DNA of 64,000 nucleotides from Patescibacteria group bacterium UBA4787 (GTDB taxonomy: Bacteria > Patescibacteriota > Patescibacteriia > UBA2591 > UBA4787). The notes beneath the pieces were generated by a model, which worked only from the letters and a program-made list of their open reading frames with translations, searched no databases and was not told where the DNA came from. Both the position numbers and the translations under genes were made by a program. The DNA is taken from positions 85,186-149,185 of the forward strand of contig DHGX01000004.1 in assembly GCA_002402995.1 (NCBI GenBank), in the 5' to 3' direction. Positions 3,814 to 62,788 of the stretch are shown here, in pieces; the stretch's first letter is position 1; each line of letters starts with the position of its first letter.

Positions 3814-3849
3814 TTATATTATAAGTCTCAATCCGTCGTCTGACGGAGA

Positions 3850-4641: not shown

Positions 4642-4662
4642 AAATATTATAAATTTATGCGT

Positions 4663-6030: not shown

Positions 6031-6045
6031 TCTTAGTTGGACTAT

Positions 6046-7572: not shown

Positions 7573-7588
7573 AAATTTATATGTGATT

Positions 7589-8581
7589 TCATTTATTGTT
7601 TAAAATCCAAGGATATTTATTTTTTAAAGTTTTACGTAAATTTTTTGGTTTAATAATGCCAAATTCCGTTATAAAGCCGATAATGTATTTTGGCGGTATT
7701 AAATCAAAAGCGAAATTGACAATTTTTAATTTTTTAGGAGCTTGCGGCCAAATTTCTTTTGACGCGCGTTCTTCAATTTTAATCCATGAGGCGGGATGGA
7801 ATTTTAAAAGCGGAGCTGCCACATAAATCGGCACTTTTTCTGTAAATGCCGCAACGGCTATTCCAAAACTGCCAATTTTATTAATAGTCTCGCCATTATT
7901 TAAGATGGCGTCGGCTCCGATTATTATTTTATCAATCATTATCTTCTTTCCGGAATGGCGCGAAATTAAAAATCCAGCAGATGAATCGGTAACCATTGTG
8001 GTATTGACACCAGACTTAATTAATTGCTTGGAAGTAATTCGTCCTTGGAAAAATGGTCGTGTCTCGGTGTTAAAGACTCGAAACCTTTTATTTGATTTTT
8101 TAGCCGAGATAAGAATTTGCTCCACCAACCACGAATGACAATGGGTTAAAACGTTGTCATTGTTCTTTATGATTGATTTGCCGAACGGAATAATTAATTT
8201 AGCCGCATTTTCTATCAAGTGCAAGAATTTGTCGCTTGTTTTTTTGAGGCAATTTTTAGCTTGAACTGTGTCTTTAGGTTTAGTTTTTTTTAATTCTAAT
8301 AAAATGAATTTAACCCCATTTTGAGCCAAAGGCTCGGTTGGCCTGGCAGACAGCAAATAAAAAGCCGCTTTTTTTATGTTGGACTCCCATTCTTTAATCG
8401 TTTTAGACTGATAATTAATGCCATAGTCTCTAAGCGTAAAAATGATAGCCTTAGCTATAGCCGTAGCGCCCTGGATCTTCAGGGCTTTTATATCTCGATA
8501 TGTTTTTAGTAGTTTCTTTTCCATAAAAATGTTATGATTATTTATAAGAGTAATTATACTCTCCGCCAGCTGGCGGATCAC
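7589..8581 (-). CDS. ribose-1,5-bisphosphate isomerase (eIF-2B alpha/beta/delta-like, e2b2 family)
   Basis: 330 aa eIF-2B-like fold. The real start is probably the internal ATG at 8524 (MEKKLLKTYRD...), because the ORF-track start at 8581 is a GTG. It is co-directional with and adjacent to the AMP phosphorylase. Confidence 0.7.
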   Translation of the reverse strand: MIRQLAESIITLINNHNIFMEKKLLKTYRDIKALKIQGATAIAKAIIFTLRDYGINYQSKTIKEWESNIKKAAFYLLSARPTEPLAQNGVKFILLELKKTKPKDTVQAKNCLKKTSDKFLHLIENAAKLIIPFGKSIIKNNDNVLTHCHSWLVEQILISAKKSNKRFRVFNTETRPFFQGRITSKQLIKSGVNTTMVTDSSAGFLISRHSGKKIMIDKIIIGADAILNNGETINKIGSFGIAVAAFTEKVPIYVAAPLLKFHPASWIKIEERASKEIWPQAPKKLKIVNFAFDLIPPKYIIGFITEFGIIKPKNLRKTLKNKYPWILNNK

Positions 8582-8610
8582 TCGTAAAATTACGCAATTT
8601 ATCCATTAAT

Positions 8611-8694
8611 TATACCCGCTTCGCGGGTGAAATTGGGGCGCTCGGAGTCAAATCAAAAGAAGACTTTTGTCTGACATCCTCGCTACCAATTATA
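8611..8694 (+). repeat. family B dispersed intergenic repeat, copy B1 (GAGTATAAT-box element)
   Basis: Matches the consensus TATACTCGCTTTGCTTGTGAAATTGGGGCACTCGGAGTCAAATCAAAAGTAAAACTTTTGTTTGATCTCTTCGCTACCAATTATA. It lies in the divergent region between e2b2 and the AMMECR1 gene. Confidence 0.8.
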
Positions 8695-8724
8695 CCACAA
8701 TATAAAAAAATAGAGAATATAGTC

Positions 8725-9788: not shown

Positions 9789-10733
9789 ATGAATCATCAA
9801 GATACAAAGTTAATATTTTTTGGCACCGGAAGCTTCGCCGAAATAATTTTAGATTACATAAAGAACGAATTCAAAAACATCTTAATTATAACCGAACCAG
9901 ACAAACCGGCCGGCAGGAAACAAATTTTAACCCCTTCGTTGGTTAAAGTTTTGGCGAATAAATATAACCTAGAGATTTGGCAACCGGACTCAATAAAAAC
10001 TCCGGAATTTATTCAACAAATAAAAGATCAAAAACCGGATATTATCTTGATTGCCGATTACGGGAAGATAATTCCTTTAGATATTATAAAAATACCGCAA
10101 TACGGTTCTTTGAATATTCATCCGTCTTTGCTTCCCAAATATCGCGGCTCCTCCCCTATCCAGAACACTATATTAAATAACGACCAAGAAACTGGCGCAA
10201 CGTTAATGCTGATTGATGAATCGGTTGACCACGGCCCGATAATAACTAATAACAGAATACAAATAACGAATAACAAAATTACTGCCGAAGAGTTGTCAAA
10301 AGAGCTGGCAGAATTAGGCGCAAAATTATTTATAGAGACATTGCCTTTGTGGATAAGCGGAGAAATTAAAGCTATTCCCCAAGATCATTCAATGGCTATT
10401 TTTACGAAAAAAATCAAAAAGGAAGACGGTTTAATTGATTGGTCGTTAAACGCAGAGGCAATAGACGCGCGTTTCCGCGCTTATCAGCCCTGGCCAGGTG
10501 TTTATACTTATTGGCGCAATCAACGCTTAAAAATTATTAAAGCGAATACCCTTGAAATAGACCACAAATTAATATTGGGAACTGTTTTTTTAACTGAAAA
10601 AAAAGAGTTGGCTGTCGCTTGCGGAAAAGACGCTCTAATTTTAGAAGAGGTTCAACTTGAGGGAAAAAAGAAAATAGCGGCTAAAATTTTTTTGAATGGT
10701 TGTCCGGGGGTAGTTGGTTCTATCTTAAAATAA
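9789..10733 (+). CDS. fmt: methionyl-tRNA formyltransferase
   Basis: 314 aa with an N-terminal formyltransferase domain (IFFGTGSFA, SLNIHPSLLPKYRGSSPIQ) and the C-terminal Fmt domain. Confidence 0.9.
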   Translation: MNHQDTKLIFFGTGSFAEIILDYIKNEFKNILIITEPDKPAGRKQILTPSLVKVLANKYNLEIWQPDSIKTPEFIQQIKDQKPDIILIADYGKIIPLDIIKIPQYGSLNIHPSLLPKYRGSSPIQNTILNNDQETGATLMLIDESVDHGPIITNNRIQITNNKITAEELSKELAELGAKLFIETLPLWISGEIKAIPQDHSMAIFTKKIKKEDGLIDWSLNAEAIDARFRAYQPWPGVYTYWRNQRLKIIKANTLEIDHKLILGTVFLTEKKELAVACGKDALILEEVQLEGKKKIAAKIFLNGCPGVVGSILK

Positions 10734-15060: not shown

Positions 15061-15886
15061 CTTTAAATCTTAAGTCAAGATATTCTAGCTTTGATCTGTC
15101 TTCAATATATTTAGTTAAGCTCTCTTGTAATTTATAAATTTGATAATTAAAGGTTGAATCACCCAACATATATATTTGCCAATCTTCGTTCGTTGTTATC
15201 TTAATTTGCAAAATATTATTGAGATAATCGATTTCGGCAATTTTAATTTTTACTTCCGGACGAACAGATAAACTAGCAATGTCGTTAACCAATTGAGAGA
15301 TTAAAGAAAAAAAGTTTTTATTCAGCGGTAAAACGGTCTGATCAAGAATAATCGGCAAAGACGACGGTTGTGGCTTTTGATAAATGGGCACAAATCCGAT
15401 TACCGGATCTAAATAATATGAGAAATCTCCATTGGGCTGGAATAAGGCTATCGGCATGATTTCCCAATATTTAATGATTAATTGGTGGGGAAAGTATCTG
15501 ATAATTTTTATTTTTTGGAACGCTTGTTGTTTTAAAACTTCTTTTTCTATCTTATCCTCTTTAATAGTCAAAAGACTATTTTTGCCAAAGAAGAATGAAT
15601 CTTTTTGGACGCGCAGTTTTTCTATTAAATCAAACAAGTCCTTTTCGTCCGCGGGAACAGTGTTTTGGTCAGATTTTATGCTCTTGATGGAAATTTCTCG
15701 AACGTCAAAATAATTATTTTTAATCAACAGCCAAATGAATCCCCCTATTAATATTATAAAAATAATCGAGAAAATTATTAAAACTTTATTTATTTTTCTT
15801 TTTTTTGATTGCCGAGCAACCATCATTTCGTGCCTAACTGCAGATTGATGTTCCGGCGAATTGTTTTTTTTCTTGAAAAGAGGCAT
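15020..15886 (-). CDS. cell division protein FtsQ/DivIB-like (single N-terminal TM, POTRA-like)
   Basis: 288 aa with a basic N-terminus, one transmembrane helix and an extracytoplasmic domain. Its start codon sits inside the target duplication of MITE copy A1. Confidence 0.45.
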   Translation of the reverse strand: MPLFKKKNNSPEHQSAVRHEMMVARQSKKRKINKVLIIFSIIFIILIGGFIWLLIKNNYFDVREISIKSIKSDQNTVPADEKDLFDLIEKLRVQKDSFFFGKNSLLTIKEDKIEKEVLKQQAFQKIKIIRYFPHQLIIKYWEIMPIALFQPNGDFSYYLDPVIGFVPIYQKPQPSSLPIILDQTVLPLNKNFFSLISQLVNDIASLSVRPEVKIKIAEIDYLNNILQIKITTNEDWQIYMLGDSTFNYQIYKLQESLTKYIEDRSKLEYLDLRFKDAIYIKEKNQNNG

Positions 15887-15887
15887 A

Positions 15888-16078
15888 CCAGGTAGTAGAG
15901 ATTCGATGCTTCTCGGGGCGCGATTTATATTAAGGAATGCGATAGAAGCAAAGAATAGTTATTTTATTAATGATGAGACCAAGTAGTGTAACGAAGCGAA
16001 AAGCTTGAAACTTAATACTCCGATGCCTTGGTCGGAGTCCAGACTCTTCGACATCGGGATTGAATTTTCACTACCTGG
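15888..16078 (+). mobile_element. family A MITE, copy A1 (long form, 191 bp)
   Basis: TIRs CCAGGTAGTAGAGATTCGATGCTTC ... ATTGAATTTTCACTACCTGG flanked by CATA at 15884-87 and 16079-82. It is ~90% identical to copy A2 at 44188-44378. Confidence 0.85.
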
Positions 16079-16511
16079 CATATTTTTGTTTAGTAATATT
16101 CGGCTGCTGATTATAGAATGGATGAATTATCTTACGAAGCGCCCTTTTGCCTCCCTGTTTCTCTAAAAATTTCAATCCATTTTTAATCAATAGAAGGTTG
16201 TCTTCATCGTTTTCGTTTGCTAAGCCCACAATCGGAATTTTTAAATTATGAGCTATGAGATTGGCCGTGGTTAAGACAACTCTTATGGAAGTAAAAGATC
16301 CGGGACCATCTATCACAATGATTCCTTCAAGCGCCAAAACATTTTCATTTTCTGCTTTAAGCAAGTTTTCTATTAAATTAAGCAGGTCGCGGCGATAAAT
16401 ATTGCCTTTTGCCGAATATAATTTACCGACAATCTCCGTGTCGTTTTTATCTTTATTTTTAATAAAGGCCAAGTAGATGTCGCTTTTTACCGCGTTAATA
16501 AACAGAATCAT
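16071..16511 (-). CDS. tsaB: tRNA threonylcarbamoyladenosine biosynthesis protein TsaB (YeaZ-like)
   Basis: The core reads MILFINAVKSD...VIDGPGSFTSIRV, carrying the TsaB GPGSFTG-like motif. The ORF-track start at 16595 would read into repeat B2, so the start is placed at 16511. Confidence 0.7.
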   Translation of the reverse strand: MILFINAVKSDIYLAFIKNKDKNDTEIVGKLYSAKGNIYRRDLLNLIENLLKAENENVLALEGIIVIDGPGSFTSIRVVLTTANLIAHNLKIPIVGLANENDEDNLLLIKNGLKFLEKQGGKRALRKIIHPFYNQQPNITKQKYAR

Positions 16512-16536: not shown

Positions 16537-16684
16537 GTATAATTGGCAGTGAGGATATCAAATAAAAGTCTGCTTTTGATTTGACTCCGACTCACCTCGC
16601 TGACCCGCTACGCCAACGCGTTAGCGTGGCGAGAGCTCCGGCGAAGTGTAGCGCCCCAATTTCACGGAGCGAAGCGAGTATAAT
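16537..16684 (-). repeat. family B repeat, copy B2 (long form with nested GC-rich palindromic insert)
   Basis: Reverse orientation. It contains the insert CGCTACGCCAACGCGTTAGCGTGGCGAGAGCTCCGGCGAAG and ends with GCGAGTATAAT about 40 nt upstream of the ATG at 16725. Confidence 0.8.
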
Positions 16685-27689: not shown

Positions 27690-28536
27690 AAAAGAATTAA
27701 AACATAAAAAAATAGAATCTTGGATGTTAGAAGCCGAGATTATCTTGGCTTATATTGTAAAAGACACCAAAGAATATTTGTATGCACATCCAGAAGATGA
27801 ATTAAATAAAAAACAAGAAGCTGGGTTTAGAAAATTAATCCAAAAAAGATTAACTGGTTGGCCAACTCCCTATTTAATCAAACATAGGGAATTTTTTGGT
27901 TTAAATCTTTTTGTTAACCAAAAAGTTTTAATTCCTAGGCAAGCAACTGAATCAATTATTGAGTATATTTTAGAAAATTATAGATTAGACACAAATTCAA
28001 AAATTTTAGAAATAGGAACCGGTTCCGGTTGTATTATAGTTACCTTGGGAAAACTCTTCCCTGTCGCTAAAATTACAGCCGTAGATATCTCTAAATCAGC
28101 GCTAAAGATCGCTGAATTAAATGCTAAAAATAATGTGGTTAGAAATATTAAATTCAGACAAAGCAATTTATTTAACAAAATTAAAGGAAGATTTGATATA
28201 ATTATTGCTAATTTGCCGTATCTTTCGCCGGCCAAAAGCAAAACAATCAAATATGAACCTGTCGTGGCTTTAAACGGCGGCAAGCAAGGGCTGGAAATTA
28301 TAAAAAGATTTTTGTTCCAAGCTCCAAATTTTTTAACACCAAAAGGTAAGATAATTATTGAAATCTCGCCTACTCAAAAAAATGCTCTTATAAAATTTAT
28401 AAAAAAACAACTTACCGATTATCATTTTAATATCGAAATTAGAAAAGACTTATCCATAAAAGATAGATTGGTGATTATAACTGCTTCGCAGTTGAAATTG
28501 GGGCGCCCCACTTCGCCGGAGCTCTCGCCGCGCTAA
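27631..28536 (+). CDS. prmC: release factor glutamine methyltransferase PrmC (HemK)
   Basis: A SAM-binding motif (ILEIGTGSGCI) and an NPPY-like motif (NLPY) lie downstream of prfA. The last ~15 codons (LKLGRPTSPELSPR) are encoded by repeat B3, so the native stop is uncertain. Confidence 0.8.
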   Translation: MPLKSYKNQMKIKEALIWAKKELKHKKIESWMLEAEIILAYIVKDTKEYLYAHPEDELNKKQEAGFRKLIQKRLTGWPTPYLIKHREFFGLNLFVNQKVLIPRQATESIIEYILENYRLDTNSKILEIGTGSGCIIVTLGKLFPVAKITAVDISKSALKIAELNAKNNVVRNIKFRQSNLFNKIKGRFDIIIANLPYLSPAKSKTIKYEPVVALNGGKQGLEIIKRFLFQAPNFLTPKGKIIIEISPTQKNALIKFIKKQLTDYHFNIEIRKDLSIKDRLVIITASQLKLGRPTSPELSPR

Positions 28537-28619
28537 CGCGTTGGCGTAGCGGGTCAGCGAGGCGAGTCGGAATCAAATCAAAAGAAGACTTTTATTTGAC
28601 ATCCTCGCTACCAACCATA
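28476..28619 (+). repeat. family B repeat, copy B3 (long form with GC-rich insert)
   Basis: It overlaps the prmC 3' end. It is the only B copy not placed upstream of a gene start, lying between convergent genes. Confidence 0.8.
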
Positions 28620-36178: not shown

Positions 36179-36184
36179 ACTATG

Positions 36185-36349
36185 TTGGGTAGTGAAAATT
36201 CAATCCCGACGTCGAAGGGTCGGGATTTCGACCAAGGCGTCGGAGTAGTAAGTTTCAAGTTTTCCACTTCGATCTACTATCTGGTTCTATTATTAATAAA
36301 ATAACTATTCTTTGCTTCTATCGCATTCCTTGATATAAATCGCATACCT
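36185..36349 (-). mobile_element. family A MITE, copy A3 (long form, reverse orientation, gene-proximal TIR partly deleted)
   Basis: TATG lies at 36181-84. The copy is ~85% identical to the reverse complement of A1/A2 and ends 3 nt before the ATG at 36353. Confidence 0.7.
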
Positions 36350-42494: not shown

Positions 42495-42526
42495 AGGCTT
42501 GATTTATATATTGAATTATACTCGCT

Positions 42527-42601
42527 TTGCTTGTGAAATTTGGACGTTCAGAGTCAAGTCAAAAGTAAAACTTTTGTTTGAACTTCTCGCTACCAACTAT
42601 A
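42527..42601 (+). repeat. family B repeat, copy B4 (short form)
   Basis: Its TATAAT box lies about 20 nt upstream of the start of the 41763-42494 gene. Confidence 0.8.
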
Positions 42602-42650: not shown

Positions 42651-44186
42651 TTATTGTTCTATATATTTTACGCTTATTTTAGCTTCAAAAATTTGCTTCA
42701 GTAGCTTGGGATCGGCTCTATCCTTGCTATCTTTCATCGCTTGACCAATTAAAAATTGCAAAACGTTGATTCTCCCGTTTTGATATGCTTTTACCATTTC
42801 AGCGTTTTTATCAATTACTTTTTGAACGATATTTTCTATTTCTGTAGTATTGTCAACTCTTTTAAAGTCTTCGGATTGTATTATTTTATCAACATCTGCT
42901 CCAGTTATAAACATTTCTTCCAAAAGCTTTTGAGCCATAGTGCCGGAAACCTTATTTTCATAAATTAAAATAATAAATTCGGCGAAATTTTCAGGAGTAA
43001 TTTTAAGATTTTCAAAATTTTCATGGTGCGTTTGAAAAAGATAAAACAATCGATTAATAATCCAAGACGACACCAGCTTTAATAGCTTTGATCGGTGTTT
43101 CGTCCAAATTTCTTGTTCGCTATCTTCTACGGTTTCTAAAGATATAAGCCATGCTTTGAGTTCAGAAACAACATGCTCCGTGAAATCGGCCATAATTTTT
43201 TGGCTGGTCAGAATCTTCGCCTCTTCTTTGGATAAATCATAAGAGCGCTCGAATCTTTCGCGACGAATACAGGGCAATTCAGGCAAAGAAGATCTTAAAT
43301 TATTAATATTGATGAAATTGTCCACCGTCGAATCAAAAAATGGAATATCCGGTTCCGGAAAATAACGATAATCCGTTATCCCCTCTTTAATCCTTTGAAC
43401 TATAATTTTCTCTTTGTTCTCGTCCCAACCGACCGTAATTTTTCCCTGACGCCTTACAATTTCTCCCCCGGCAATATATTCTTCGTATTGGCGATTAGCT
43501 TCAAAACCTAAAGCCCTTTCCACGGCCTTAAAGGAATTTAAATTTTTAATTTCTGTGATTGGTGTTTTAATCTCTCGCTCGTCTTTATCAAAACTAATAT
43601 TGACGTTGACGTCGCAACGCATTTGTCCTTTTTCCATATCGGCATCGGAAATATTCAAATATCGGGCAATCAACTGCAATTCTTGCAAAAATATCTTTGC
43701 CTCTTCGGGAGATTTTAGATCTGGCTCAGTAACAATTTCGACTAAAGGAATACCCGAACGATTAAAATCAATTAAAGTATTATCGCCCGAGTGCGATAAT
43801 TTAGCAGTATCTTCTTCAAGGTGAATCCTGTTTAATCTTATTTTTCTGCGCTCATTTGATAAATCAATGTCTAGATAACCGCCCGCAATAATCGGATGAT
43901 CATATTGACTGATTTGATAACCCTTCGGCAAATCTGGATAAAAATAATTTTTGCGGTCAAATTTAAATTTTTCGGCCACGCGACTATTTAAAGACAAGCC
44001 CAACGAAATCGCTTGTTCAAGAGCTAGACGATTTACTACTGGCAATGCCCCTGGCTGACCAGTACAAACCGGACAAATATTGCTATTAGGATGACTCAAA
44101 TCGAGTTTATTCTCACAAAAACAAAACATTTTTGTTTTTGTTTTAAGCTCTAAATGGATTTCTAGCCCTATAATAAATTTAAACAT
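42651..44186 (-). CDS. gatB: Asp-tRNA(Asn)/Glu-tRNA(Gln) amidotransferase subunit B
   Basis: 511 aa with the GatB N-terminus (IGLEIHLEL, CPVCTGQPGALP) and a C-terminal YqeY-like domain. Confidence 0.9.
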   Translation of the reverse strand: MFKFIIGLEIHLELKTKTKMFCFCENKLDLSHPNSNICPVCTGQPGALPVVNRLALEQAISLGLSLNSRVAEKFKFDRKNYFYPDLPKGYQISQYDHPIIAGGYLDIDLSNERRKIRLNRIHLEEDTAKLSHSGDNTLIDFNRSGIPLVEIVTEPDLKSPEEAKIFLQELQLIARYLNISDADMEKGQMRCDVNVNISFDKDEREIKTPITEIKNLNSFKAVERALGFEANRQYEEYIAGGEIVRRQGKITVGWDENKEKIIVQRIKEGITDYRYFPEPDIPFFDSTVDNFININNLRSSLPELPCIRRERFERSYDLSKEEAKILTSQKIMADFTEHVVSELKAWLISLETVEDSEQEIWTKHRSKLLKLVSSWIINRLFYLFQTHHENFENLKITPENFAEFIILIYENKVSGTMAQKLLEEMFITGADVDKIIQSEDFKRVDNTTEIENIVQKVIDKNAEMVKAYQNGRINVLQFLIGQAMKDSKDRADPKLLKQIFEAKISVKYIEQ

Positions 44187-44187
44187 A

Positions 44188-44378
44188 CCATGTAGTAGAG
44201 ATTCGATGCTTCTCGGGGTGCGATTTATATTAAGGAATGCGATAGAAGCAAAGAATAGTTATTTTATTAATAATAGAACCAGATAGTAGACCGAAGCGGA
44301 AAGCTTGAAACTTACTACTCCGACGCCTTGGTCGGAGTCCCGACCCTTCGACATCGGGATTGAATTTTCACTACCTGA
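44188..44378 (+). mobile_element. family A MITE, copy A2 (long form)
   Basis: TIRs with CATA at 44184-87 and 44379-82. The gatB start codon is the CAT of the left duplication. Confidence 0.85.
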
Positions 44379-44385
44379 CATATTT

Positions 44386-45765
44386 TTAACAAGAATGCTT
44401 ACTACTTAAAACTATGACGATGGTTTTAAGTAAAATTTTAAAATCCAACCAAATAGACCATTGGCGAACATAGAAAAGATCTAACTTAACCTCCTCTTCA
44501 AAGGATAAACTTGATCGACCTGAAACTTGAGATAATCCTGTCACACCAGGTTTAATGAATAATAATTCTTTTTGATTATAATCATATCGTGAGACTTCAT
44601 CGGGTTGATGTGGCCGAGGTCCGACCAAACTCATTTGTCCCTTTAAAACATTAAATAATTGCGGCAATTCATCGATACTATAACGTCTAATAAATTTGCC
44701 GATTTTTGTCACGCGTGGATCGTTCTTCATTTTGAATAAAGGACCATCTTTTCTCTCGTTTTGCGCCATTAGGTCTTTTTTAAGTTGTTCGGCGTTTTTT
44801 ACCATAGAACGAAATTTGTATAATCTGAAAGATTTTCCCCGTTGACCGACTCGCGTTAAACCGACAAAAATTGACCCAGATGAATCAATTTTAATAATAA
44901 GGCCTAATAAAATAAAAAATGGAGACAGAGCAATCAATCCGAAAAAAGAAAAAATAATATCTAAAATTCTTTTGACTACCCTTCCCCACCCATCTAAAGC
45001 CGTTCGTTTTACTTCGATATACGGCCTGCCCATCATAGTTTCTACGGCTAGATTACTGGAAAGCGCGCCGAAGAGATCGGCGGCATACTTAAAATTTATT
45101 TGGTGTTCCTTGCAAAAAGCAATAAGACGCAAAACATCCGATCGAGATATATTAGAATCGCCCTGAATAATCTCGTCGAAACTTGAAACGCGACTAGACC
45201 AATTATTAATCAGGTCATCTACGGAAGCGGCTTGGCCGATAATATTATATCCATGTCCGAGATTTTTACGACAAGAGTTGATTAATTCTTCCACCTCCTT
45301 TCCTTGTCCTAAAATCAAGACTGGCTCTAAGCCAATGCCTTGTTTAAAAGATATTAACTGGATTAGATGAATTAAAAATCGTCCGATACTCAAAAAAACA
45401 AAAGAAGCTATCCATCCCGCTAAAATAATAAACCGAGAAGTAAAATATTCTCTTTGAAAAAACAAAAATAGAACAATTAACATAGTGCCCATAGAACAGC
45501 CAATAAAAATTTGGCTAATTTCTTGCGTAAAATGCCGTCTGTTTTTTATGCTATATAAGCCCAATAAAACAAAAATTCCTATCCAAATTAAAGCAATTAA
45601 AACGATCTTAAAAACATAATCGTTATAAGGGATCTGTGTGAATATCGGTAAAACTTCTTTAAATAACTTAAAACGCAAAAAATAAATAGATATGCCAGCC
45701 AAAACAAGCATAATAAAATCTAATGGCAATAAAGCGGTTAAAAATATAAGTCGAGATTTGCGCAT
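44386..45765 (-). CDS. undecaprenyl-phosphate sugar phosphotransferase (bacterial sugar transferase, WbaP/PglC-like C-terminal domain)
   Basis: 459 aa with N-terminal transmembrane helices and the C-terminal motif KFRSM...DELPQLFNVLKGQMSLVGPRP. Confidence 0.85.
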   Translation of the reverse strand: MRKSRLIFLTALLPLDFIMLVLAGISIYFLRFKLFKEVLPIFTQIPYNDYVFKIVLIALIWIGIFVLLGLYSIKNRRHFTQEISQIFIGCSMGTMLIVLFLFFQREYFTSRFIILAGWIASFVFLSIGRFLIHLIQLISFKQGIGLEPVLILGQGKEVEELINSCRKNLGHGYNIIGQAASVDDLINNWSSRVSSFDEIIQGDSNISRSDVLRLIAFCKEHQINFKYAADLFGALSSNLAVETMMGRPYIEVKRTALDGWGRVVKRILDIIFSFFGLIALSPFFILLGLIIKIDSSGSIFVGLTRVGQRGKSFRLYKFRSMVKNAEQLKKDLMAQNERKDGPLFKMKNDPRVTKIGKFIRRYSIDELPQLFNVLKGQMSLVGPRPHQPDEVSRYDYNQKELLFIKPGVTGLSQVSGRSSLSFEEEVKLDLFYVRQWSIWLDFKILLKTIVIVLSSKHSC

Positions 45766-45787
45766 AAAAATAGAATATAAAACAAAT

Positions 45788-45932
45788 TATACTCGCTTTG
45801 CTCCTAAAGTTGGGGCGCCCCGCTTCGCCATAGCTCTCGCCACGCTAACGCGTTGGCGTAGCGGGTCAGCGAGGCGAGTCGGAGTCAAATCAAAAGTAAA
45901 ACTTTTGTTTGAGCTCCTCACTACCAATTATA
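45788..45932 (+). repeat. family B repeat, copy B5 (long form with GC-rich insert)
   Basis: Its TATAAT box lies about 22 nt upstream of the sugar transferase start. Confidence 0.8.
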
Positions 45933-45985: not shown

Positions 45986-45992
45986 TGCTTAA

Positions 45993-46415
45993 ACAGGCCT
46001 ATAAGCCGAATTCTGTGCTCCCGATTTCTCGAGACGGCAATCATTTATCTAGCCTTAATATCGCTATTAAGGTCAAACGACCTACCTACTTCGTTCGCAC
46101 GAAGTTAATTTGGTCTTTCACCCAGTAAGGATTTAGCCGTTTCACCTCAAACGTTTCCATTTGAGCTACCCCCGAAGGGGCCGAAGCGTCTTTCGTTGCT
46201 TCGCGTCTCTGTTCGCACCTCTACCCCTCACTTGGGCCGTGAAAAAAAGAATATAATCATATAACATAATTATTTCCTATTTCATAGACCAAGTGAGGGG
46301 CGACGGCCGTTAACCGCTACGCTTTGTATTCCGATTTCTCGGAATATGGTGTTCGGACTTTCCTCCCCTTATTTAAAAAATAAGGAGTAATTGCCCGGCC
46401 CATTTAAACTATATA
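45993..46415 (-). ncRNA. rnpB: RNase P RNA (bacterial type A)
   Basis: The minus strand carries GGGGAGGAAAGTCCGAACACC (the P4 5' strand GGAGGAAAGUCCGG consensus) and, near the 3' end, ACAGAATTCGGCTTA (the P4 3' strand ACAGAAnnCGGCUUA). A P3 hairpin and GC-rich helices lie between them. Confidence 0.8.
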
Positions 46416-54975: not shown

Positions 54976-55200
54976 CTAATATCGGAAAGTTATTCTACCC
55001 TTAGACAAATCATACGGACTCATTTCTATTTTAACTCGATCGCCCATGGCTATTCTAATCCGATTTAGTCTTAATCTTCCAGAAAGATAGGCCAAAATTT
55101 CTTGGCCATTATCTAATTTAACCTTAAAGGTCGTCGAAGGCAAAAGTTCTTCAATGGTTCCGTCTGATTCTAAAAATTCTTCTTTTTTGGCGTTAAACAT
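54976..55200 (-). CDS. infA: translation initiation factor IF-1
   Basis: S1-like OB fold. Two adjacent ATGs lie at 55198-55203, and repeat B6 abuts the start. Confidence 0.9.
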
Positions 55201-55285
55201 CATACTCGCTTTGCTTGTGAAATTGGGGCACTCGGAGTCAAATCAAAAGTAAAACTTTTGTTTGATCTCTTCGCTACCAATTATA
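55201..55285 (+). repeat. family B repeat, copy B6 (short form)
   Basis: It directly abuts the infA start codon. Confidence 0.8.
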
Positions 55286-55394
55286 GAAAAACTAACGTTT
55301 AATATTTTAAAACAATTATCATTCTTTGTCAATATTGCCAAAAAATTAATAAGGTCAAAACCGACTTTTAATTTCGGTTTTAAAAGTTTGGGCG

Positions 55395-56354
55395 CTAAAA
55401 ACCCACATATTCAATTTCTTCGTTCAACTCTATATTAAACTTGTCTTTGACTTTTTGTTTAATCAGACCGATTAATTTATAAGTGTCATTCGCCGTAGCA
55501 TGGTTGGCATTAATTATAAAATTCGCGTGTTTTTCGCTTATTTTTGCCCCGCCAATTCCTTGTTCCTTTAATCCTGTTTTTTCAATAAGCCAACCCGCCG
55601 GGATGGTGCCAATTTTTAAAAACCTCAAAAAATCGTCATGATATTCTGCCTCTATGGGCGCAACCATATCCGTGCTTAGGTTAATTAATTTCGCATTGCG
55701 AAATACGCAACCCGCGCTAGGTTCGAGCGGATTGTTCTTGCGCAATGCCAGATTCTTGTTCATCTCTTCGGCAATTGTCTTTTGATCTTGTTTCGCTAAT
55801 ATTATTTCCCCGCTTAAAATAATATAATTTTTATTTATCTTAAATAAACTGTATCGATAAGAAAATTCGCATTTGTCGGCGTCGAAAAAGAGTGTTTTAT
55901 TATTTTCAACATCAAAAACTTTAACACGCGGAGAATTATTCTCTATAGTTTTGCCAAAAGCTCCGGCGTTGCCGCATATTGCCCCGCCGATTGTTCCGGG
56001 AATGCCAGTCGCCCACTCCAGGCCGCTCAAAGAATTTTTAAAAGCAAAATCAACCAAAGAGCTTAAATCGACGCTTGCGTCAAATTTTAAAATTCCATTT
56101 TCGTATAAAATAGAATTTCCTTTAAATTTAATAACCAATCCCCTAAATCCTTGATCTGATATTAAAATGTTGCTGCCGTCGCCTAAAATAAAAAACGGTA
56201 TATTATTATCCCTCGCGTAAATCAAAGAAGCGCAGAGATCATCTGTGTTCCTAGGTTCATAAAAAAAATCGGCTGGGCCGCCTATTCTGAAGGTCGTATG
56301 GGGGCCCAACGCAACATTATTTTTTAAGTATTCTGCTTTAAACATCTTATTCAT
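55395..56354 (-). CDS. murB: UDP-N-acetylenolpyruvoylglucosamine reductase
   Basis: 319 aa with an FAD-binding N-terminus (HTTFRIGGPADFF, ILGDGSNIL) and the MurB C-terminal domain. Confidence 0.85.
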   Translation of the reverse strand: MNKMFKAEYLKNNVALGPHTTFRIGGPADFFYEPRNTDDLCASLIYARDNNIPFFILGDGSNILISDQGFRGLVIKFKGNSILYENGILKFDASVDLSSLVDFAFKNSLSGLEWATGIPGTIGGAICGNAGAFGKTIENNSPRVKVFDVENNKTLFFDADKCEFSYRYSLFKINKNYIILSGEIILAKQDQKTIAEEMNKNLALRKNNPLEPSAGCVFRNAKLINLSTDMVAPIEAEYHDDFLRFLKIGTIPAGWLIEKTGLKEQGIGGAKISEKHANFIINANHATANDTYKLIGLIKQKVKDKFNIELNEEIEYVGF

Positions 56355-56438
56355 TATACTCGCTTTGCGAGTGAAATTAGGGCACTCGGAGTCAAATCAA
56401 AAGAAGACTTTTGTTTGATCTCTTCGCTACTAATTATA
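56355..56438 (+). repeat. family B repeat, copy B7 (short form)
   Basis: It directly abuts the murB start codon (…GCGAGTATAATGAAT). Confidence 0.8.
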
Positions 56439-56558
56439 TCAGAAAATCTATGTTATTACTACACCATTAAAGGCATTCCGCGGCAAAAATGTAGAATCAC
56501 TTGGCTTAAAAAAGGAGAGGTGATATACTAGAATAAAGATAATCTAAACAAAAAAAAT

Positions 56559-57488: not shown

Positions 57489-57511
57489 TTGTGGGATAAA
57501 TATAAATTATG

Positions 57512-57652
57512 CCAGGTAGTGAAAATTCGATAGTGCTTTTTGCTTCGGTTCACTATTTGGTTTCATTATTAATAAAATAAATATTCTTTGCTTCCAGTTT
57601 ATTCTTTCATATAATCGCACTTTAAGAGAAGCATCGAATTTCTACTACCTGG
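57512..57652 (-). mobile_element. family A MITE, copy A4 (short form, reverse orientation)
   Basis: TATG lies at 57508-11 and 57653-56. The cysS ATG is inside the right-hand duplication. Confidence 0.85.
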
Positions 57653-57653
57653 T

Positions 57654-59042
57654 ATGTTGCAGTTTTTTAACGACTTATCCAAAAAAAAGGAGATTTTTAC
57701 GCCAATAAAAAAAAGAGGCGTTGGTTTGTATACTTGCGGACCAACGGTTTATAATTATGTTCATATCGGTAATTTAAGAACATTTCTTTTAAATGATATC
57801 TTGAGAAGGACATTGGAGTATAACGGTTATTCTGTAAAAAATATAATTAATATAACCGACGTCGGACACTTAACTTCTGACGCTGATACAGGCGAAGACA
57901 AAATGGATAAAATGTCCAAGGCGGAAGGACGCGCTCCGGAAGAAATCGCGCAATTTTTTACCGACGCCTTTTTGGCCGACATTAAAGATTTGAATATTAT
58001 CCATCCCAATGTGCTTTGTAAAGCCACGGAACATATTCCGCAGCAAATAAAATTAATTAAAAAACTGGAAAAGAACGGCTTCACCTACCAAACCTCTGAA
58101 GCCGTATATTTTGACACGGCTAAATTTCCCGAATACGGCAAAATGGCCGGTTTTAGCGAGAAAAAAACCCAGGAAGCCCAGGCCAGAGTTGAAGAAGATC
58201 CGGAAAAGAAACATCTGGCTGATTTTACCTTATGGTTTAAGCGCGTTGGCCGCCACGCCCATCATATTATGCACTGGGATAGCCCCTGGGGCGACGGCTG
58301 GCCGGGGTGGCACATTGAGTGCAGCGCCATGTCAATGTATTATTTAGGCAAAACCTTTGATATTCACGGTGGCGGCATTGATCTTCTGCCGGTTCATCAT
58401 ATTAATGAAATCGCCCAATCCGAAGCGGCCACAGGCCAGAAATTCGTTAACTACTGGGTCCATGGGGAATTTATTCTAATGGACAGTAAAAAGATGGCCA
58501 GATCAGAGGGCGGATTTATTATGCTGCAGAATCTTATTGAAAAAGGCTTTAATCCCCTTGCCTTTCGCTATCTCTGCCTTAACACCCATTATCGCACGCA
58601 ATTAAACTTCTCTTTTCAGGCCTTGGAAGCGGCCCAGAATGCTTTGAATAAATTGTATCAAGCTATTAACGACTTCCCTAAACCGCGCGGCCGCGCTCCT
58701 GAATTTGAAGAACGCTTTTTAACGGCCATAAACGATGATTTAAATATGCCATCAGCTTTAGCCGTGGTTTGGGATTTACTTAAAACAAAAAATATTAAAC
58801 CCAGCGCCAAACTAAACACTTTATTCAAGTTTGATAAAGTTTTGGGACTTAAATTTGAAGAAACCTATAACAATTCCCAGGACACGCCGGAAGAAATAAA
58901 ACTTTTAGCCCAAGACAGAGAAGAGGCCAGGCAGGAAAAAAACTGGAAGAGAGCCGATGAAATCAGAAAAAAAATCCAAGAAGCCGGCTATCTGGTTGAA
59001 GACACGCCAACCGGACCTGATATAAAAAAAATAATATTGTAG
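57654..59042 (+). CDS. cysS: cysteinyl-tRNA synthetase
   Basis: 462 aa with HIGN (HIGH-like) and KMSKS-region motifs. The N-terminus aligns with canonical CysS. Confidence 0.9.
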   Translation: MLQFFNDLSKKKEIFTPIKKRGVGLYTCGPTVYNYVHIGNLRTFLLNDILRRTLEYNGYSVKNIINITDVGHLTSDADTGEDKMDKMSKAEGRAPEEIAQFFTDAFLADIKDLNIIHPNVLCKATEHIPQQIKLIKKLEKNGFTYQTSEAVYFDTAKFPEYGKMAGFSEKKTQEAQARVEEDPEKKHLADFTLWFKRVGRHAHHIMHWDSPWGDGWPGWHIECSAMSMYYLGKTFDIHGGGIDLLPVHHINEIAQSEAATGQKFVNYWVHGEFILMDSKKMARSEGGFIMLQNLIEKGFNPLAFRYLCLNTHYRTQLNFSFQALEAAQNALNKLYQAINDFPKPRGRAPEFEERFLTAINDDLNMPSALAVVWDLLKTKNIKPSAKLNTLFKFDKVLGLKFEETYNNSQDTPEEIKLLAQDREEARQEKNWKRADEIRKKIQEAGYLVEDTPTGPDIKKIIL

Positions 59043-59054
59043 TCCATAATAAAA

Positions 59055-59085
59055 ACAGCCCCGATAAATCGGGGCTGTTTTTTAA
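59055..59085 (+). terminator. rho-independent terminator after cysS
   Basis: ACAGCCCCGATAAATCGGGGCTGT followed by TTTTTT. Confidence 0.75.
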
Positions 59086-59114
59086 TATACATATAACGTA
59101 TCGGCATATCTAAT

Positions 59115-59233
59115 GTTTCGCCGACCTTCTTATTATTTATCAAATGGAGGCGAAATTTGGGTGAAAGAAAAAGCGCAACTTTTGAAAATTATTAACGCAC
59201 TCTTTCTTGAACCTCATACACGCTGTTAAGTGA
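59115..59233 (+). repeat. family C repeat, copy C1
   Basis: About 85% identical to 60729-60849 in the same orientation. The minus strand encodes the 25-codon mini-ORF MRFKKECVNNFQKLRFFFHPNFASI. Confidence 0.7.
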
Positions 59234-59332
59234 TGTAATTTTTAACTTTTGGATTTCCAAATGCTATATATAGAAAAATTAAATAAACAGATAATAAAAA
59301 AATGGCTAATAAATTTTTTGGTCTTATAATAA

Positions 59333-59737
59333 CTACTCAACTTCTTGACCACCTTTAACTATATAACTAACTAATTTAAAAATGATTAGGAAGTATATAG
59401 CCTGTAGTCCATAGAAAAAAATAACATAAGTTACGGCTCCGTAAACAAAGAAAATATTTTCCGAAACTGCATATTTACTCTCACACTCTGCTTTTTCAGC
59501 TTCCCACTTTTCGACACTTGCATCATTATAGTCACGAGCTAGAAAATCGTCATCTGCATAGTTTTCACAGTTAAACAGAGGGGTAAAAGAGTTCTCATAA
59601 GCCGTCATCGTCAATTGATATGGCGCAATAGCAACTACAAGGAAAAACAAGACTACCAAAACTCTGTGCCACCAATATTTTTTCAACTTATTTTGTGTTT
59701 TTGTAAACGGAAATAGCCATTTTTTTATTTTTTTCAT
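59333..59737 (-). CDS. hypothetical small membrane protein (2 TM)
   Basis: 134 aa with two hydrophobic helices. Confidence 0.45.
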   Translation of the reverse strand: MKKIKKWLFPFTKTQNKLKKYWWHRVLVVLFFLVVAIAPYQLTMTAYENSFTPLFNCENYADDDFLARDYNDASVEKWEAEKAECESKYAVSENIFFVYGAVTYVIFFYGLQAIYFLIIFKLVSYIVKGGQEVE

Positions 59738-59761
59738 AGAGTTCGAAAATAAAATTATTTT

Positions 59762-60154
59762 TTATCTCACTACCACGTCAAAGCTATAATCTTTTGTCCA
59801 TTCAAAGCCAGGAAAATCAAACAACTGTTCTTGTAAGTCTTTTTTTATCATTTCCTTAATATCTTCTGCTCTGTCTTGTGGTAAAATATTCTTGGGATAT
59901 ACATAAACTACAATGCTTTTTGCAAGCACAGATCCGTATGCGTTAAAATCAAGAAACAAGACAGAATCCTTTATTTGACGACGATAAAAATAATCATTGA
60001 TAAATCCCTCAAGCTCTAATTCAGTTTTTCTAGTAATTTCAGTCGTTTGATTTTCTGATTGTTTAACTGGTTGTGTGTCGTTTTTAACAAGTGTCGAACA
60101 ACCTGTTAAAACTAAAACAACAAGCAATAGTGTTGGAATTAGTAGTTTTTTCAT
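59762..60154 (-). CDS. hypothetical lipoprotein
   Basis: 130 aa with a signal peptide and lipobox (VLTGCST). Confidence 0.5.
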   Translation of the reverse strand: MKKLLIPTLLLVVLVLTGCSTLVKNDTQPVKQSENQTTEITRKTELELEGFINDYFYRRQIKDSVLFLDFNAYGSVLAKSIVVYVYPKNILPQDRAEDIKEMIKKDLQEQLFDFPGFEWTKDYSFDVVVR

Positions 60155-60177
60155 AGTGGTTTTGATAAAAAATAATT

Positions 60178-60675
60178 TTATTTTTTAAATTCTTCCACTT
60201 TCCTTTTTAGAATGTCATTTCTAACTTTATTTACAGCTCTTAAATAAGAAATATCATTTTCTGTATAGTTGTCTCCGTAATCAGATAGATAAAAACTATA
60301 TAACGCTTTCAGTGTTAAAGCATCGTAGATATCATAACTAAGGATATAATTTTTTCCATTAATATTCGTTGAAAAGGAGCTTGAATATAAACAAGTATTA
60401 AGGGTGGGGCTATAAAATATCTCTTCAAGAACCTCTTCCCCTAAATTTCCATTAGATTCCTTGATGATTTGTTGGATTTTATCAAGCTGGTCAAAACATG
60501 CCTTTTTCTTTGTAAACAAATCTTCCGGTTGCTTTTCTGTTGCCGAGGCATCTTGGTTAATTTCTTGATAGTTGTTTTGAGCGTCGTTTTTGGAGGATTG
60601 ATATTTATCAAAGATAATATATGCCCCCAATACTACAATAATTGCTACTAAAATTGGTGCGATAAATTTTTTCAT
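60178..60675 (-). CDS. hypothetical secreted/membrane-anchored protein
   Basis: 165 aa with an N-terminal hydrophobic helix. Confidence 0.5.
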   Translation of the reverse strand: MKKFIAPILVAIIVVLGAYIIFDKYQSSKNDAQNNYQEINQDASATEKQPEDLFTKKKACFDQLDKIQQIIKESNGNLGEEVLEEIFYSPTLNTCLYSSSFSTNINGKNYILSYDIYDALTLKALYSFYLSDYGDNYTENDISYLRAVNKVRNDILKRKVEEFKK

Positions 60676-60728
60676 AAAGATGTATAGTAATTTTTTATTA
60701 TTTCACTTAACGTTCAAGTATATGAGAA

Positions 60729-60849
60729 GTTTCGCCGACTTCCTTATTATTTTATCATAGAGGAGACGAAATTTGGGTGAAAGAAAAAGTGCAACCTTTG
60801 AAAATTATTTATGCGCTTTTTCTTGAACCGCATATTCGTTGTTAGACGA
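60729..60849 (+). repeat. family C repeat, copy C2
   Basis: It lies upstream (minus-strand sense) of the three-gene cassette. The minus strand encodes the 27-codon mini-ORF MRFKKKRINNFQRLHFFFHPNFVSSMIK. Confidence 0.7.
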
Positions 60850-61133
60850 AGTTGCGAATACTTGGAGCAATTTTGTCTAACTCGTTTTTAAACGAAATAT
60901 TTATGATGATTTAACAAATATCGTATATTTTATACATAATTAGCGGGGGCGGGTAAACTACGATATAATATATACATAGCCAATTAAGCGATTCAGCCTT
61001 CGTAGCCACTACGGCGAAGTAGGCAGCCTTAGCGAAGTTTAATGGCAGGACACTCGGGTTAAGTGCCAGATATTTAAGAGTATTTTAAGGGATTTCGTGA
61101 ATTATCTAATTGAGATATGTGGGTCGGCAAATA

Positions 61134-61459: not shown

Positions 61460-61533
61460 TGGCGGGGGCGGCAGGAATCGGACCCGCATCCTCGGTTTTG
61501 GAGACCGATATTCTACCACTGAACTACACCCCC
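61460..61533 (-). tRNA. tRNA-Trp (anticodon CCA)
   Basis: Hand-folded cloverleaf with acceptor GGGGGTG/CGCCCCC, anticodon arm TCGGT-CTCCAAA-ACCGA, T arm GCGGG-TCCGATT-CCTGC and an encoded CCA. Confidence 0.85.
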
Positions 61534-62093: not shown

Positions 62094-62121
62094 ATTATAC
62101 CTAATTAAAATAAAAAATCAA
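62094..62121 (-). promoter_or_regulatory. promoter of the tRNA-Thr/Tyr/Thr-rpmG-tRNA-Trp operon
   Basis: TTGATT -16 nt- TATAAT on the minus strand, about 35 nt upstream of the tRNA-Thr(GGT) 5' end. Confidence 0.55.
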
Positions 62122-62122
62122 G

Positions 62123-62264
62123 CCAGGTAGTAGAAATTCGATGCTTCTTAAAAAGTGCGCTTATATGAAGAAATGCGGCAAGAGCAAAAAATATTTATTT
62201 ATTAATTACTAGAACCAGTCGGTTAAAGAGAAGCAAAAAGCACTATCGAATTTTCACTACCTGG
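62123..62264 (+). mobile_element. family A MITE, copy A5 (short form)
   Basis: TIRs flanked by CAAG at 62119-22 and 62265-68. It lies immediately upstream of the tRNA operon promoter. Confidence 0.85.
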
Positions 62265-62279
62265 CAAGCCTCCTAAATT

Positions 62280-62510
62280 TTAATTACTGTTCGATGGGCG
62301 CTGACGACGATTTTTAAACCGCAATTTTAATGAATTTATATTACGTTTAAGATAATTTAAAATTAATTGTCTTTTTATCCAATAACGCTTCTCTTGCGTA
62401 AGCTGCTTTAAATCAAGAGAAGCTGCCAGCGACAACTTGGCAGATAATAATATAATAATTCTTGCCAATAAAGCGAGAATAAAAACAACTAAAATTATAT
62501 TTATTATCAT
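62280..62510 (-). CDS. hypothetical small membrane protein sandwiched between two MITE copies
   Basis: 76 aa with an N-terminal hydrophobic helix and a basic tail. Its start codon is the CAT of the A6 target duplication. Confidence 0.3.
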   Translation of the reverse strand: MIINIILVVFILALLARIIILLSAKLSLAASLDLKQLTQEKRYWIKRQLILNYLKRNINSLKLRFKNRRQRPSNSN

Positions 62511-62511
62511 A

Positions 62512-62649
62512 CCAGGTAGTAGAAATTCGGTGCTTCTTAAAGTGCGATTATTAAGAAACGCGCTGGAAGCAAAGAATTAGTTATTTTATTAATGATGGGA
62601 CCAAGCAATGGAACGAAGCAAAAAGCACTATCGAATTTTCACTACCTGG
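62512..62649 (+). mobile_element. family A MITE, copy A6 (short form)
   Basis: TIRs with CATA at 62508-11 and 62650-53. Confidence 0.85.
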
Positions 62650-62788
62650 CATAATATAGATTTAATTAACCTTACAAATTCATTTGGCATATATTATAAA
62701 ATTATTCCTCAAAATCATTTATTGTCAAGCAAGCGAGTGAAATAAAAATTTTATTTTCATTTCCGAGCGAGCGCAGACAACACAGGGT

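Follow-up and report, generated by a model that had tools for sequence, protein, structure and literature searches.

Among described systems, the closest to the locus reported here are integrons, above all the sedentary chromosomal ones, and clusters of attC sites lacking an integrase (CALINs), which carry at least two attC sites. Integron attC sites are imperfect inverted repeats of the type R''-L''…L'-R', ~57-141 nt long, with AAC and GTT ends and a conserved structure. Recombination is directed to the bottom strand by extrahelical bases in the L box together with a central spacer that is symmetric and unpaired. These extrahelical bases and the I2 insertion of the integrase IntI are among the defining features of classical integron recombination. 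According to the prevailing view, IntI arose from an Xer-like ancestor by acquisition of the I2 helix, although a "lack of intermediates" has been noted; a scenario involving single-stranded integrative mobile elements exploiting Xer (IMEX) has also been sketched (PMC7790495). Here, we describe two direct repeats, C1 and C2, in a stretch of 64,000 nt (hereafter the window) from Patescibacteria group bacterium UBA4787 (contig DHGX01000004.1, positions 85,186 to 149,185). They are very probably copies of an attC-like site of an integron-like cassette system that is widespread in Patescibacteria, also known as Candidate Phyla Radiation (CPR) bacteria.

Both repeats are present where a first-pass annotation of the window had placed them; they are ~85% identical and have three small minus-strand genes between them. 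A MAFFT alignment of positions 59080-59280 with 60695-60900 gave 82% mean column identity across the padded stretch, and a repeat search returned an 83-nt core (59146-59228 and 60762-60844) with 87% identity. In the window and the 5 kb beyond it, a hidden Markov model (HMM) made from the two copies recovered these two only (E = 2.6e-42 and 7.6e-44), and other matches, antisense self-hits excepted, were no better than E = 0.3. The length of ~120 bp proposed earlier was too short, since the conserved unit comprises ~150 nt and extends further on one side; an alignment of 62 copies (A2) sets its limits at 59086-59236 for C1 and 60700-60852 for C2. The suggested comparison with Rfam was carried out for both repeats with Rfam 15 and found no family at gathering thresholds or at E <= 10. 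Permissive matches to rimP and STnc430 fall on the cysS terminator, outside the repeat.

The repeats do not stem from a local duplication. When an 18-mer of their invariant core (GAAATTTGGGTGAAAGAA) was searched for exact matches in the GTDB species representatives (one genome per species), 99 stretches were found; 69 of these carry the element, mostly at full length and with E ~1e-40, while the other 30 are chance matches in unrelated organisms. The notion of an ordinary spacer without conservation elsewhere is emphatically contradicted by these 69 stretches. They derive mostly from metagenome-assembled genomes (MAGs) of Patescibacteria and, by record label, from many classes, with hosts including Uhr-, Falkow-, Morani-, Kerfeld-, Magasanik-, Brenner-, Peregrini-, Peri-, Sacchari- and Parcubacteria. 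In a scan of viral contigs, three chance matches and no element were found. A covariance model (R1), used for a wider search, yielded 217 matches in 71 sources. Across CPR classes, sites of this highly conserved type (C-type; loci L008-L106) are ~85-95% identical, compared with 37-80% for the recombinases described below and ~55-60% for CysS. Their neighbours in the same arrays are far more diverged, shorter and GC-richer, with the ends kept.

Read on the strand of the cassette genes, the element begins with ACATC-N4-AAC-A, continues with GCGTGTATGAG (5' arm of the closing stem P1), two hairpins and CTCATACACGC (3' arm of P1), and ends with AAAC-GTT-N4-GAAAT. The 11-bp stem P1 forms a three-way junction with hairpin P2 (GGT·TC·AAGAAAAAGTGC … GCACTTTTTCTT·TC·ACC) and hairpin P3 (TTTCGCC·TC·CT … AG·TC·GGCGAAA), giving an element of ~150 nt; site lengths, flanks included, range from 95 to 222 nt. 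AAC and GTT are kept in 55-57 of the 62 copies. Because RNAalifold, applied to the 62 sequences, gave the closing stem alone, the structure was named by hand and tested by pair counts. In the three-way junction, 92.7% of cells are paired versus 32-55% in slid controls, and 21 pairs change on both sides versus 6.0 ± 1.5 in shuffles, none of which reached 21 in 500 trials. A consensus-like copy folds as single-stranded DNA (ssDNA) into exactly this junction (-28.8 kcal/mol, z = -6.0), and the other strand reaches -27.8 kcal/mol. Two conserved 2 × 2 internal loops appear as tandem G·A mismatches on the plus strand of the window, and the same strand holds the most conserved wobble positions.

The sites form arrays. 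In 44 of the 45 loci with at least two strong sites, all of them share a strand, and the median distance between sites is 812 nt. A co-oriented ORF (open reading frame) ends a median of 15 nt upstream of the site in 126 of 150 strong sites. These preceding ORFs belong to 110 unrelated clusters and 71 Pfam families, among them NUDIX, peptidase S51, deaminases, HIT, methyltransferases, SDR, Fic and Zeta toxin. By R1 matches, examples include arrays of ten sites (L036) and of seven (L012 and L035), and arrays exceed 20 kb (L016 and L038, on one contig). Multi-gene cassettes are seen in related arrays too, such as a block of restriction-modification and Shedu genes in L116, in which a HaeIII-type restriction enzyme and its methylase share a single cassette with a Shedu SduA_C protein. 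Such defence and addiction genes, a HepT/MNT pair among them, occur in L116 and L117, and other cassettes encode NUDIX, methyltransferase, HD and EamA proteins (L116 6350-9739, L117 8179-8800 and L115 4665-9852). The rank of C-type sites next to attI, often first or second, was left unused, as it is biased by how the loci were found.

A recombination signature ties neighbouring sites to each other. In 39 of 80 adjacent pairs, the N4 that follows GTT in one site is the exact reverse complement of the N4 preceding AAC in its successor, versus 6.6% of random pairs and 8.8% for the two ends of one and the same site. In classical integrons, such complementarity between neighbours places the crossover between G and TT (written G/TT below). 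One cassette of 814 nt is present in two arrays at 88% identity, as the first cassette at attI in L074 and as the fifth in L035, whose recombinases are 38% identical. The homology starts exactly at TTATGTGAAAT, preceded by G or A, and ends a few bases past …CGCAAACG/TT. Another cassette is common to L014 and L041 in the same way. The earlier proposal that the cassette moved by recombination between the repeats thus holds in part, because the block has cassette boundaries of the integron type; the homologous recombination it implied is replaced by a site-specific process at AAC and GTT.

When all ORFs of at least 150 aa were clustered, one recurrent family emerged, a tyrosine recombinase of ~270 aa found in 17 loci (motif …HSLRHSFATHLLE…LLGH…TQIYT). 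Its gene lies upstream of the array and diverges from it in all 17 loci where it is visible, and five extra loci reached through homologous recombinases have the same layout. The solved structure closest to the family is that of the Vibrio integron integrase VchIntIA (2a3v), with XerA next, and the family scores 207-245 bits with NCBIfam NF040815 (XerA / integron integrase; cut-off 220). More than 5,385 homologues are found at E <= 1e-40, and their sources name them XerD or "tyrosine-type recombinase". The recombinase of L035 (3273-4220) is longer, with 315 aa; ~42 residues at the position of I2 align to neither XerA nor IntI, and its TIGR02249 score is the highest, 244 bits.

Between the recombinase gene and the array lies a second conserved site, with the consensus ACACTTCGCATAAAAACGA-GTT-ATGT-GAAAT, in which ATGT occupies the N4 position. 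It was found in 18 related loci at 27-149 nt from the recombinase start codon, and in complete platforms its core reads …TTCGCATAAAAACGA-GTT-N4-GAAAT. The inverse core of the first cassette complements the N4 of this site in ~10 of 17 loci, and the cassette of L074 begins exactly at its G/TT. On these grounds, we infer that the conserved site functions as attI. The site and the 3' end of the element both read ACTTC(G/T)CATA…(7-9 nt)…GTT-N4-GAAAT, and the left arm of the attI-like site resembles the 3' arm region of cassette sites. Written as ACTTCGCATAA-AAACGA-GTTATGTGAAAT, the attI-like consensus resembles dif sites such as that of E. coli, GGTGCGCATAA-TGTATA-TTATGTTAAAT. Several attI regions (L113 and L110, both at ~9900-9950, and others) contain a second copy of the left arm, inverted or direct (e.g., TATACGAAAACACTTCGTATA or TTCGCATAACATACAA); these extra copies upstream of the core recall the repeats of attI1 that serve as accessory binding sites for the integrase. 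L110 and L111, which come from one species and are otherwise 100% identical, differ by indels of 30-42 nt at ~7840, ~8622 and ~9817, the attI region included, which could reflect site-associated micro-variation or a repeat assembly artefact.

These observations suggest a mechanism in which a tyrosine recombinase of ~270 aa from the IntI/XerA/Xer group, encoded divergently beside a dif-like attI, would insert circular cassettes at the G/TT of attI, and in which cassettes would be excised through site-by-site recombination. The substrate is probably the strand opposite to the genes in its folded form, as it is in integrons and phage CTXphi; folding is favoured by the covariation seen in each of the three helices and by the complementary N4 of neighbouring sites.

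The window locus can be read as a small array of the same kind, with the following features.

59086..59236, minus strand: C1, attC-like site closing the three-gene cassette (R1 covariance model 144.8 bits, E = 1e-33)
60700..60852, minus strand: C2, attC-like site that is itself an ORF-less cassette right after the attI-like site (R1 170.8 bits, E = 2.4e-40)
60870..60900, minus strand: attI-like (dif-like) site, ATATTTCGTTTAAAAACGA-GTT-AGAC-AAAAT (consensus score 21; genuine sites 13-25)
59097..60710, minus strand: predicted three-gene cassette, C1 included, starting with the TT in the GTT of C2 and finishing with the G in the GTT of C1
60178-60675, minus strand: cassette gene 1, 165 aa, with an N-terminal hydrophobic anchor or signal, no Pfam family
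59762-60154, minus strand: cassette gene 2, predicted lipoprotein of 130 aa (MKKLLIPTLLLVVLVLTGC...) with the lipobox LTGC
59333-59737, minus strand: cassette gene 3, a 134-aa protein containing two hydrophobic segments
60901..61133, strand not applicable: non-coding stretch of ~235 nt, at the place where complete platforms begin their divergent recombinase gene

On the minus strand, C1 reads ACATC-ACTT-AAC … GTT-ATAT-GTATA and C2 reads ACTTC-GTCT-AAC … GTT-AAGT-GAAAT. The GTT-AAGT of C2 is the exact complement of the ACTT-AAC of C1, and the match is perfect over 9 nt (GTTAAGTGA and TCACTTAAC); because GTT-AAGT-GA of C2 perfectly complements TC-ACTT-AAC of C1, the block from 60710 to 59097 is read as one three-gene cassette closed by C1, its boundaries following from the G/TT crossover rule. 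The attI-like site lies 27 nt upstream of C2, and its AGAC complements the GTCT that precedes the AAC of C2. Both points together indicate that C2 is an ORF-less cassette at the attI-like site. Downstream of C1, nothing but the cysS terminator is found.

The three proteins of this cassette matched no significant Pfam family, and among the related loci the only sign of a homologue was a weak match to an N-terminal motif of the 134-aa protein. This motif (K..WWHR[VL]L[VL]V.FF) is found in longer cassette proteins of L061 (255-956) and L024 (198-917), with pairwise E values of 2e-05 and 7e-06 over 23-32 residues only, and these proteins likewise precede C-type sites. A promoter-like sequence, TTCACC-16-TATGAT, lies at 60754-60781 on the minus strand, formed by the 3' arm of P2 and the loop of P3, and occupies the same place in all C-type sites. 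It matches 9 of 12 positions and aims at the next cassette; a sigma-70 pattern scan of the window gave 16 sites versus 11.2 ± 2.8 expected, which is not significant overall. The motif may help to explain the extreme conservation of C-type sites, and C2 may serve as a promoter cassette for the three genes.

In a relative, L002, whose cysS is 90% identical at the nucleotide level, C1 and the gene of the 134-aa protein are missing, and one breakpoint of this difference lies exactly at the AAC/GTT of C1; the 3' end of cassette gene 2 is 98% identical. The synteny of cysS, a comparison proposed in the first-pass annotation, was checked and proved uninformative: no non-self homologue of CysS exceeds ~60% identity, the named matches being CPR MAGs, and the contig of the close relative L002 ends inside the cassette. 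The gene order of the window cassette is identical in five assemblies, and the other assemblies of the source strain are 100% identical to the window, so they hold no micro-variation to exploit.

Several findings weigh against this interpretation, some of them concerning the window and others the system as a whole. No recombinase gene is present in the window and the next 5 kb (69 kb). Both sites of the window have a broken closing stem and do not fold into the junction, which leaves activity at this locus unsupported. In C1, hairpins P2 and P3 are intact, while the 3' arm of P1 has decayed into unrelated sequence, and its ssDNA fold leaves P1 open (-11.9 kcal/mol, z = -0.25). In C2, three mismatches occur among the 11 pairs of P1, and the ssDNA fold (-17 kcal/mol, z = -2.7) has P1 unformed. 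The second breakpoint of the L002 indel is at no recognisable site, and that contig has low coverage. For the system at large, the recombinases reach 196-244 bits with TIGR02249 (integron integrase), below its cut-off of 265, and are matched in two stretches; the IntI-specific insertion is missing, with residues ~194-237 of 2a3v aligning to ~10 residues. The L-box stem is a perfect 11-bp helix without extrahelical bases, unlike integron attC sites. The strand preference of folding is weak in energy (-28.8 versus -27.8 kcal/mol), and G·T and A·C counts are balanced outside two conserved positions. Moreover, the 3' end of the element alone constitutes a duplex dif-like site, so folding is possibly unnecessary. 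Several host labels are non-CPR (Gammaproteobacteria, Omnitrophota and others), which likely reflects mis-binning or mislabelling and leaves such hosts unproven. As the family was found through one exact 18-mer, the counts cover only this site type. A separate observation concerns labels: L029 and L031 are 99.98% identical over 5.2 kb with a C-type site (2822-8000 in both), and their MAGs are labelled Bacillota and Bacteroidales, respectively.

Because the 69 kb contain no recombinase gene and both closing stems are lost, the block is most likely fixed now. A tblastn search of the window with 17 recombinases gave a best E value of 0.09, with no match in 60901..61133 and no recombinase remnant. 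The window locus is thus most likely a decayed, CALIN-like fossil mini-array that is inactive today. It corresponds to a CALIN in having two sites, no integrase and co-oriented genes.

The comparison with integrons and CALINs reveals both shared and divergent properties. CPR platforms likewise consist of a divergent tyrosine recombinase gene adjoining an attI site, and of co-oriented arrays of mostly single-ORF accessory cassettes. Each of these cassettes is closed by a site that, like attC, is an imperfect inverted repeat ending in AAC and GTT and conserved in structure. The first bases of a CPR cassette are complementary to the inverse core that terminates it, as expected for a G/TT crossover, and the integron boundary rule (TT and RRRY against RYYY and AA at the cassette's own end) holds in the CPR arrays. 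Toxin-antitoxin and defence genes are part of the cargo, ORF-less and multi-gene cassettes occur, and the sites are similar in sequence within the family, as are the Vibrio cholerae repeats (VCRs). Unlike integrons, the CPR recombinase lacks the IntI-specific I2 insertion and stays below the TIGR02249 cut-off, and therefore does not qualify as intI. The R and L boxes are separated by a spacer of 1 × 4 nt versus ~5 × 5, the attI is dif-like, and one site type is 85-95% identical across classes of the superphylum. The hosts themselves are a further difference, as no integron report for CPR bacteria was found in the literature searched.

Archaeal integrons resemble the CPR system in forming cassette arrays in lineages known only from MAGs, some of them small-celled (PMC9668308). 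Archaeal IntIs keep the IntI-specific additional domain and their sites keep canonical attC folds (Ghaly et al. 2022, PMC9668308), whereas the CPR recombinases lack this domain. That study makes no mention of CPR (PMC9668308), and the IntegronFinder 2 paper does not list CPR (PMC9024848). A literature search for integrons or attC sites in Patescibacteria/CPR returned only resistome or mobile genetic element surveys, although a description elsewhere is possible. Thus, an integron-like system in CPR is apparently undescribed.

Other Xer-based modules share single properties with the CPR platforms. The pdif modules of Acinetobacter plasmids also have their cargo bounded by inverted Xer-type sites, with the same arm type facing the module. 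They differ in using simple 28-bp duplex sites scattered on plasmids and the host XerC/D, and in having no structured 100-nt core, no adjacent dedicated recombinase and no co-oriented array. XerS/difSL, XerH/difH and the archaeal XerA/dif have recombinases similar in size to the CPR enzyme, which is itself similar in sequence to XerA, and the genes of XerS and XerH adjoin their own sites, as in CPR platforms. These modules differ in that they resolve chromosome dimers at the terminus and have no cassette arrays.

The main rival to a dedicated platform is the exploitation of the cell's own Xer system, as by IMEX such as phage CTXphi. According to this reading, the recombinase would be the dimer resolvase of the cell and the "attI" its chromosomal dif, and cassettes would hijack Xer through a folded or duplex dif mimic and build up in tandem at dif. 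Much of the enzymology fits: the recombinase is Xer-type, lacks I2, is called XerD by its sources and is extremely common in CPR, as its homologue count shows, and its gene adjoins its own site as in XerS/difSL (PMC1914069). The target is dif-like, and units accumulate in tandem beside it. The element site can be regarded as two inverted dif-like halves ~100 nt apart that are foldable into a mimic of a duplex site, which resembles the attP of CTXphi, a parallel that finds support in PMC7790495 and PMC3442271. A dif mimic should have two arms around a 6-8-bp centre, and the attI-like site and the 3' end of the element agree with this layout. In L113, moreover, the locus is at a GC-skew maximum.

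What speaks for a dedicated platform instead is the genomic position and the composition of the arrays. In L110, L115, L116, L117 and the window, the sign of the GC skew does not change from one side of the locus to the other; L113 alone shows a switch. Most platforms (four of the five examined), like the locus of the window, therefore lie away from the terminus, the position required of dif. Core genes to the left and right of the locus share one orientation in L115-L117, and no recombinase gene adjoins the attI-like site of the window. Arrays of many units exceed 20 kb, and the units are single accessory genes without replication or transfer functions, not phages or plasmids. The recombinase gene, different from IMEX, always belongs to the platform. 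We therefore favour a dedicated integron-like platform and consider it unlikely, if worth keeping in view, that the cassettes exploit a resident dimer-resolution system. In L113 (JAQULK010000001, 672 kb), the recombinase/array locus coincides with both a GC-skew maximum and a convergent switch in gene orientation.

A structured RNA, acting as a 3'-UTR (untranslated region) stabiliser or terminator, as a small RNA or as a cis-regulator of the downstream gene and spread by duplication, would account for a fold with strong covariation support that is placed directly after stop codons. Tandem G·A mismatches are typical of RNA motifs, though here they are on the antisense strand, and the weak conserved promoter-like TTCACC-16-TATGAT points downstream. 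Such an RNA is very improbable, because Rfam holds no match even at E <= 10, no U-tract terminator is present and the stabilising G·A and G·T features lie on the strand antisense to the genes. It also leaves unexplained the AAC/GTT ends, the N4 complementarity of neighbours, the constant divergent recombinase with its attI-like site, the cassette common to two arrays and the breakpoints at G/TT.

Still less probable is a non-autonomous transposable element, of the MITE (miniature inverted-repeat transposable element) or palindromic IS200/IS605 type, that flanks genes by chance. The genome has other MITE-like repeat families, and the element combines inverted ends and hairpins with high conservation across genomes. 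Its copies, however, are co-oriented in arrays (44 of 45 loci) and always placed after ORFs, they show no target-site duplication, the N4 rule ties each of them to its neighbour, and only two occur within 69 kb of the source genome. Furthermore, the partner enzyme is a tyrosine recombinase and not a transposase.

The two mini-ORFs that the first-pass annotation quoted do exist exactly as given. Of the 62 copies, ~11 have this ORF shortened to 3-11 codons, ~9 carry a frameshift that yields another peptide, and 3 lack the ATG. A coding function is thus contradicted by its disruption or missing ATG in more than 20 of 62 copies and by substitutions that are compensatory for base pairs, not synonymous; between the two window copies, 7 of 8 changes fall at codon positions 1 and 2, and only one is synonymous. 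A duplicated leader region, with a mini-ORF of 25-28 codons serving as leader peptide or upstream ORF for the cassette, can practically be dismissed, even though both window copies contain the ORF, C2 lies ~50 nt upstream of the first cassette gene and many family members retain an ORF beginning MRFKKKCVNNFQRLHFFFHPNF, because the ORF is broken across the family, the window pair differs chiefly at codon positions 1 and 2, the paired stems account for the sequence conservation, the elements follow ORFs (a median of 15 nt past the stop codon) instead of preceding them, and C1 is followed by the cysS terminator only. The mini-ORF is a by-product of the conserved stems and should not receive a gene annotation.

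Two further candidates were dropped. A template and variable repeat pair of a diversity-generating retroelement was rejected because the two copies do not differ specifically at adenines and both lie outside long ORFs. Attachment sites of an island inserted in a tRNA gene were rejected since the repeats bear no relation to the 3' end of the tRNA. The tRNA integration hotspot suggested earlier is not supported either: the array has an attI-like site of its own as its start, and 580 nt with another gene in between separate it from the tRNA gene.

That a single ~150-nt site type is attached to many unrelated genes and varies so little between CPR classes may reflect a pool of cassettes common to these bacteria, or one process by which they make cassettes. 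A more far-reaching proposal, which we offer as conceivable and somewhat short of an even chance, combines this with the recombinase and its sites: Patescibacteria would run a true cassette-capture platform, with a Xer/XerA-like recombinase that never acquired I2, an attI resembling dif, sites folded from two inverted dif-like halves, and up to tens of cassettes per array, and the platform would represent either a surviving intermediate between Xer/dif-IMEX recombination and integrons or an independent reinvention of the integron. If this is true, the combination of an I2-less recombinase, a dif-like attI and foldable sites would provide an experimentally tractable system for the origin of integrons. 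It would also mean that CPR bacteria, whose genomes of ~1 Mb are usually described as reduced and stable, have a dedicated route for exchanging accessory and defence genes. Annotation pipelines that demand the IntI-specific domain would overlook the CPR system. The practical message of the window itself, a decayed mini-array, is modest.

The surroundings of the block contain the following genes and further repeats.

57654-59042: cysS
61460-61533, minus strand: tRNA-Trp
15884-16087, 36181-36344, 44184-44387, 57497-57670, 62105-62275 and 62508-62680: copies of repeat family A
8605-8703, 16538-16664, 28474-28619, 42515-42601, 45786-45932, 55195-55293 and 56349-56447: copies of repeat family B

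Family A is MITE-like, ~170-200 nt long, with inverted ends (CCAGGTAGTAG.GA.TTCGAT…), and its copies at 57.5 kb and 62.1-62.7 kb enclose cysS, the cassette block and four tRNA genes. Family B measures ~100-127 nt, has the core GGAGTCAAATCAAAAG…CTCGCTACCAA.TATA and is intergenic in both orientations. One of its copies adjoins the RNase P RNA gene (45986-46406).

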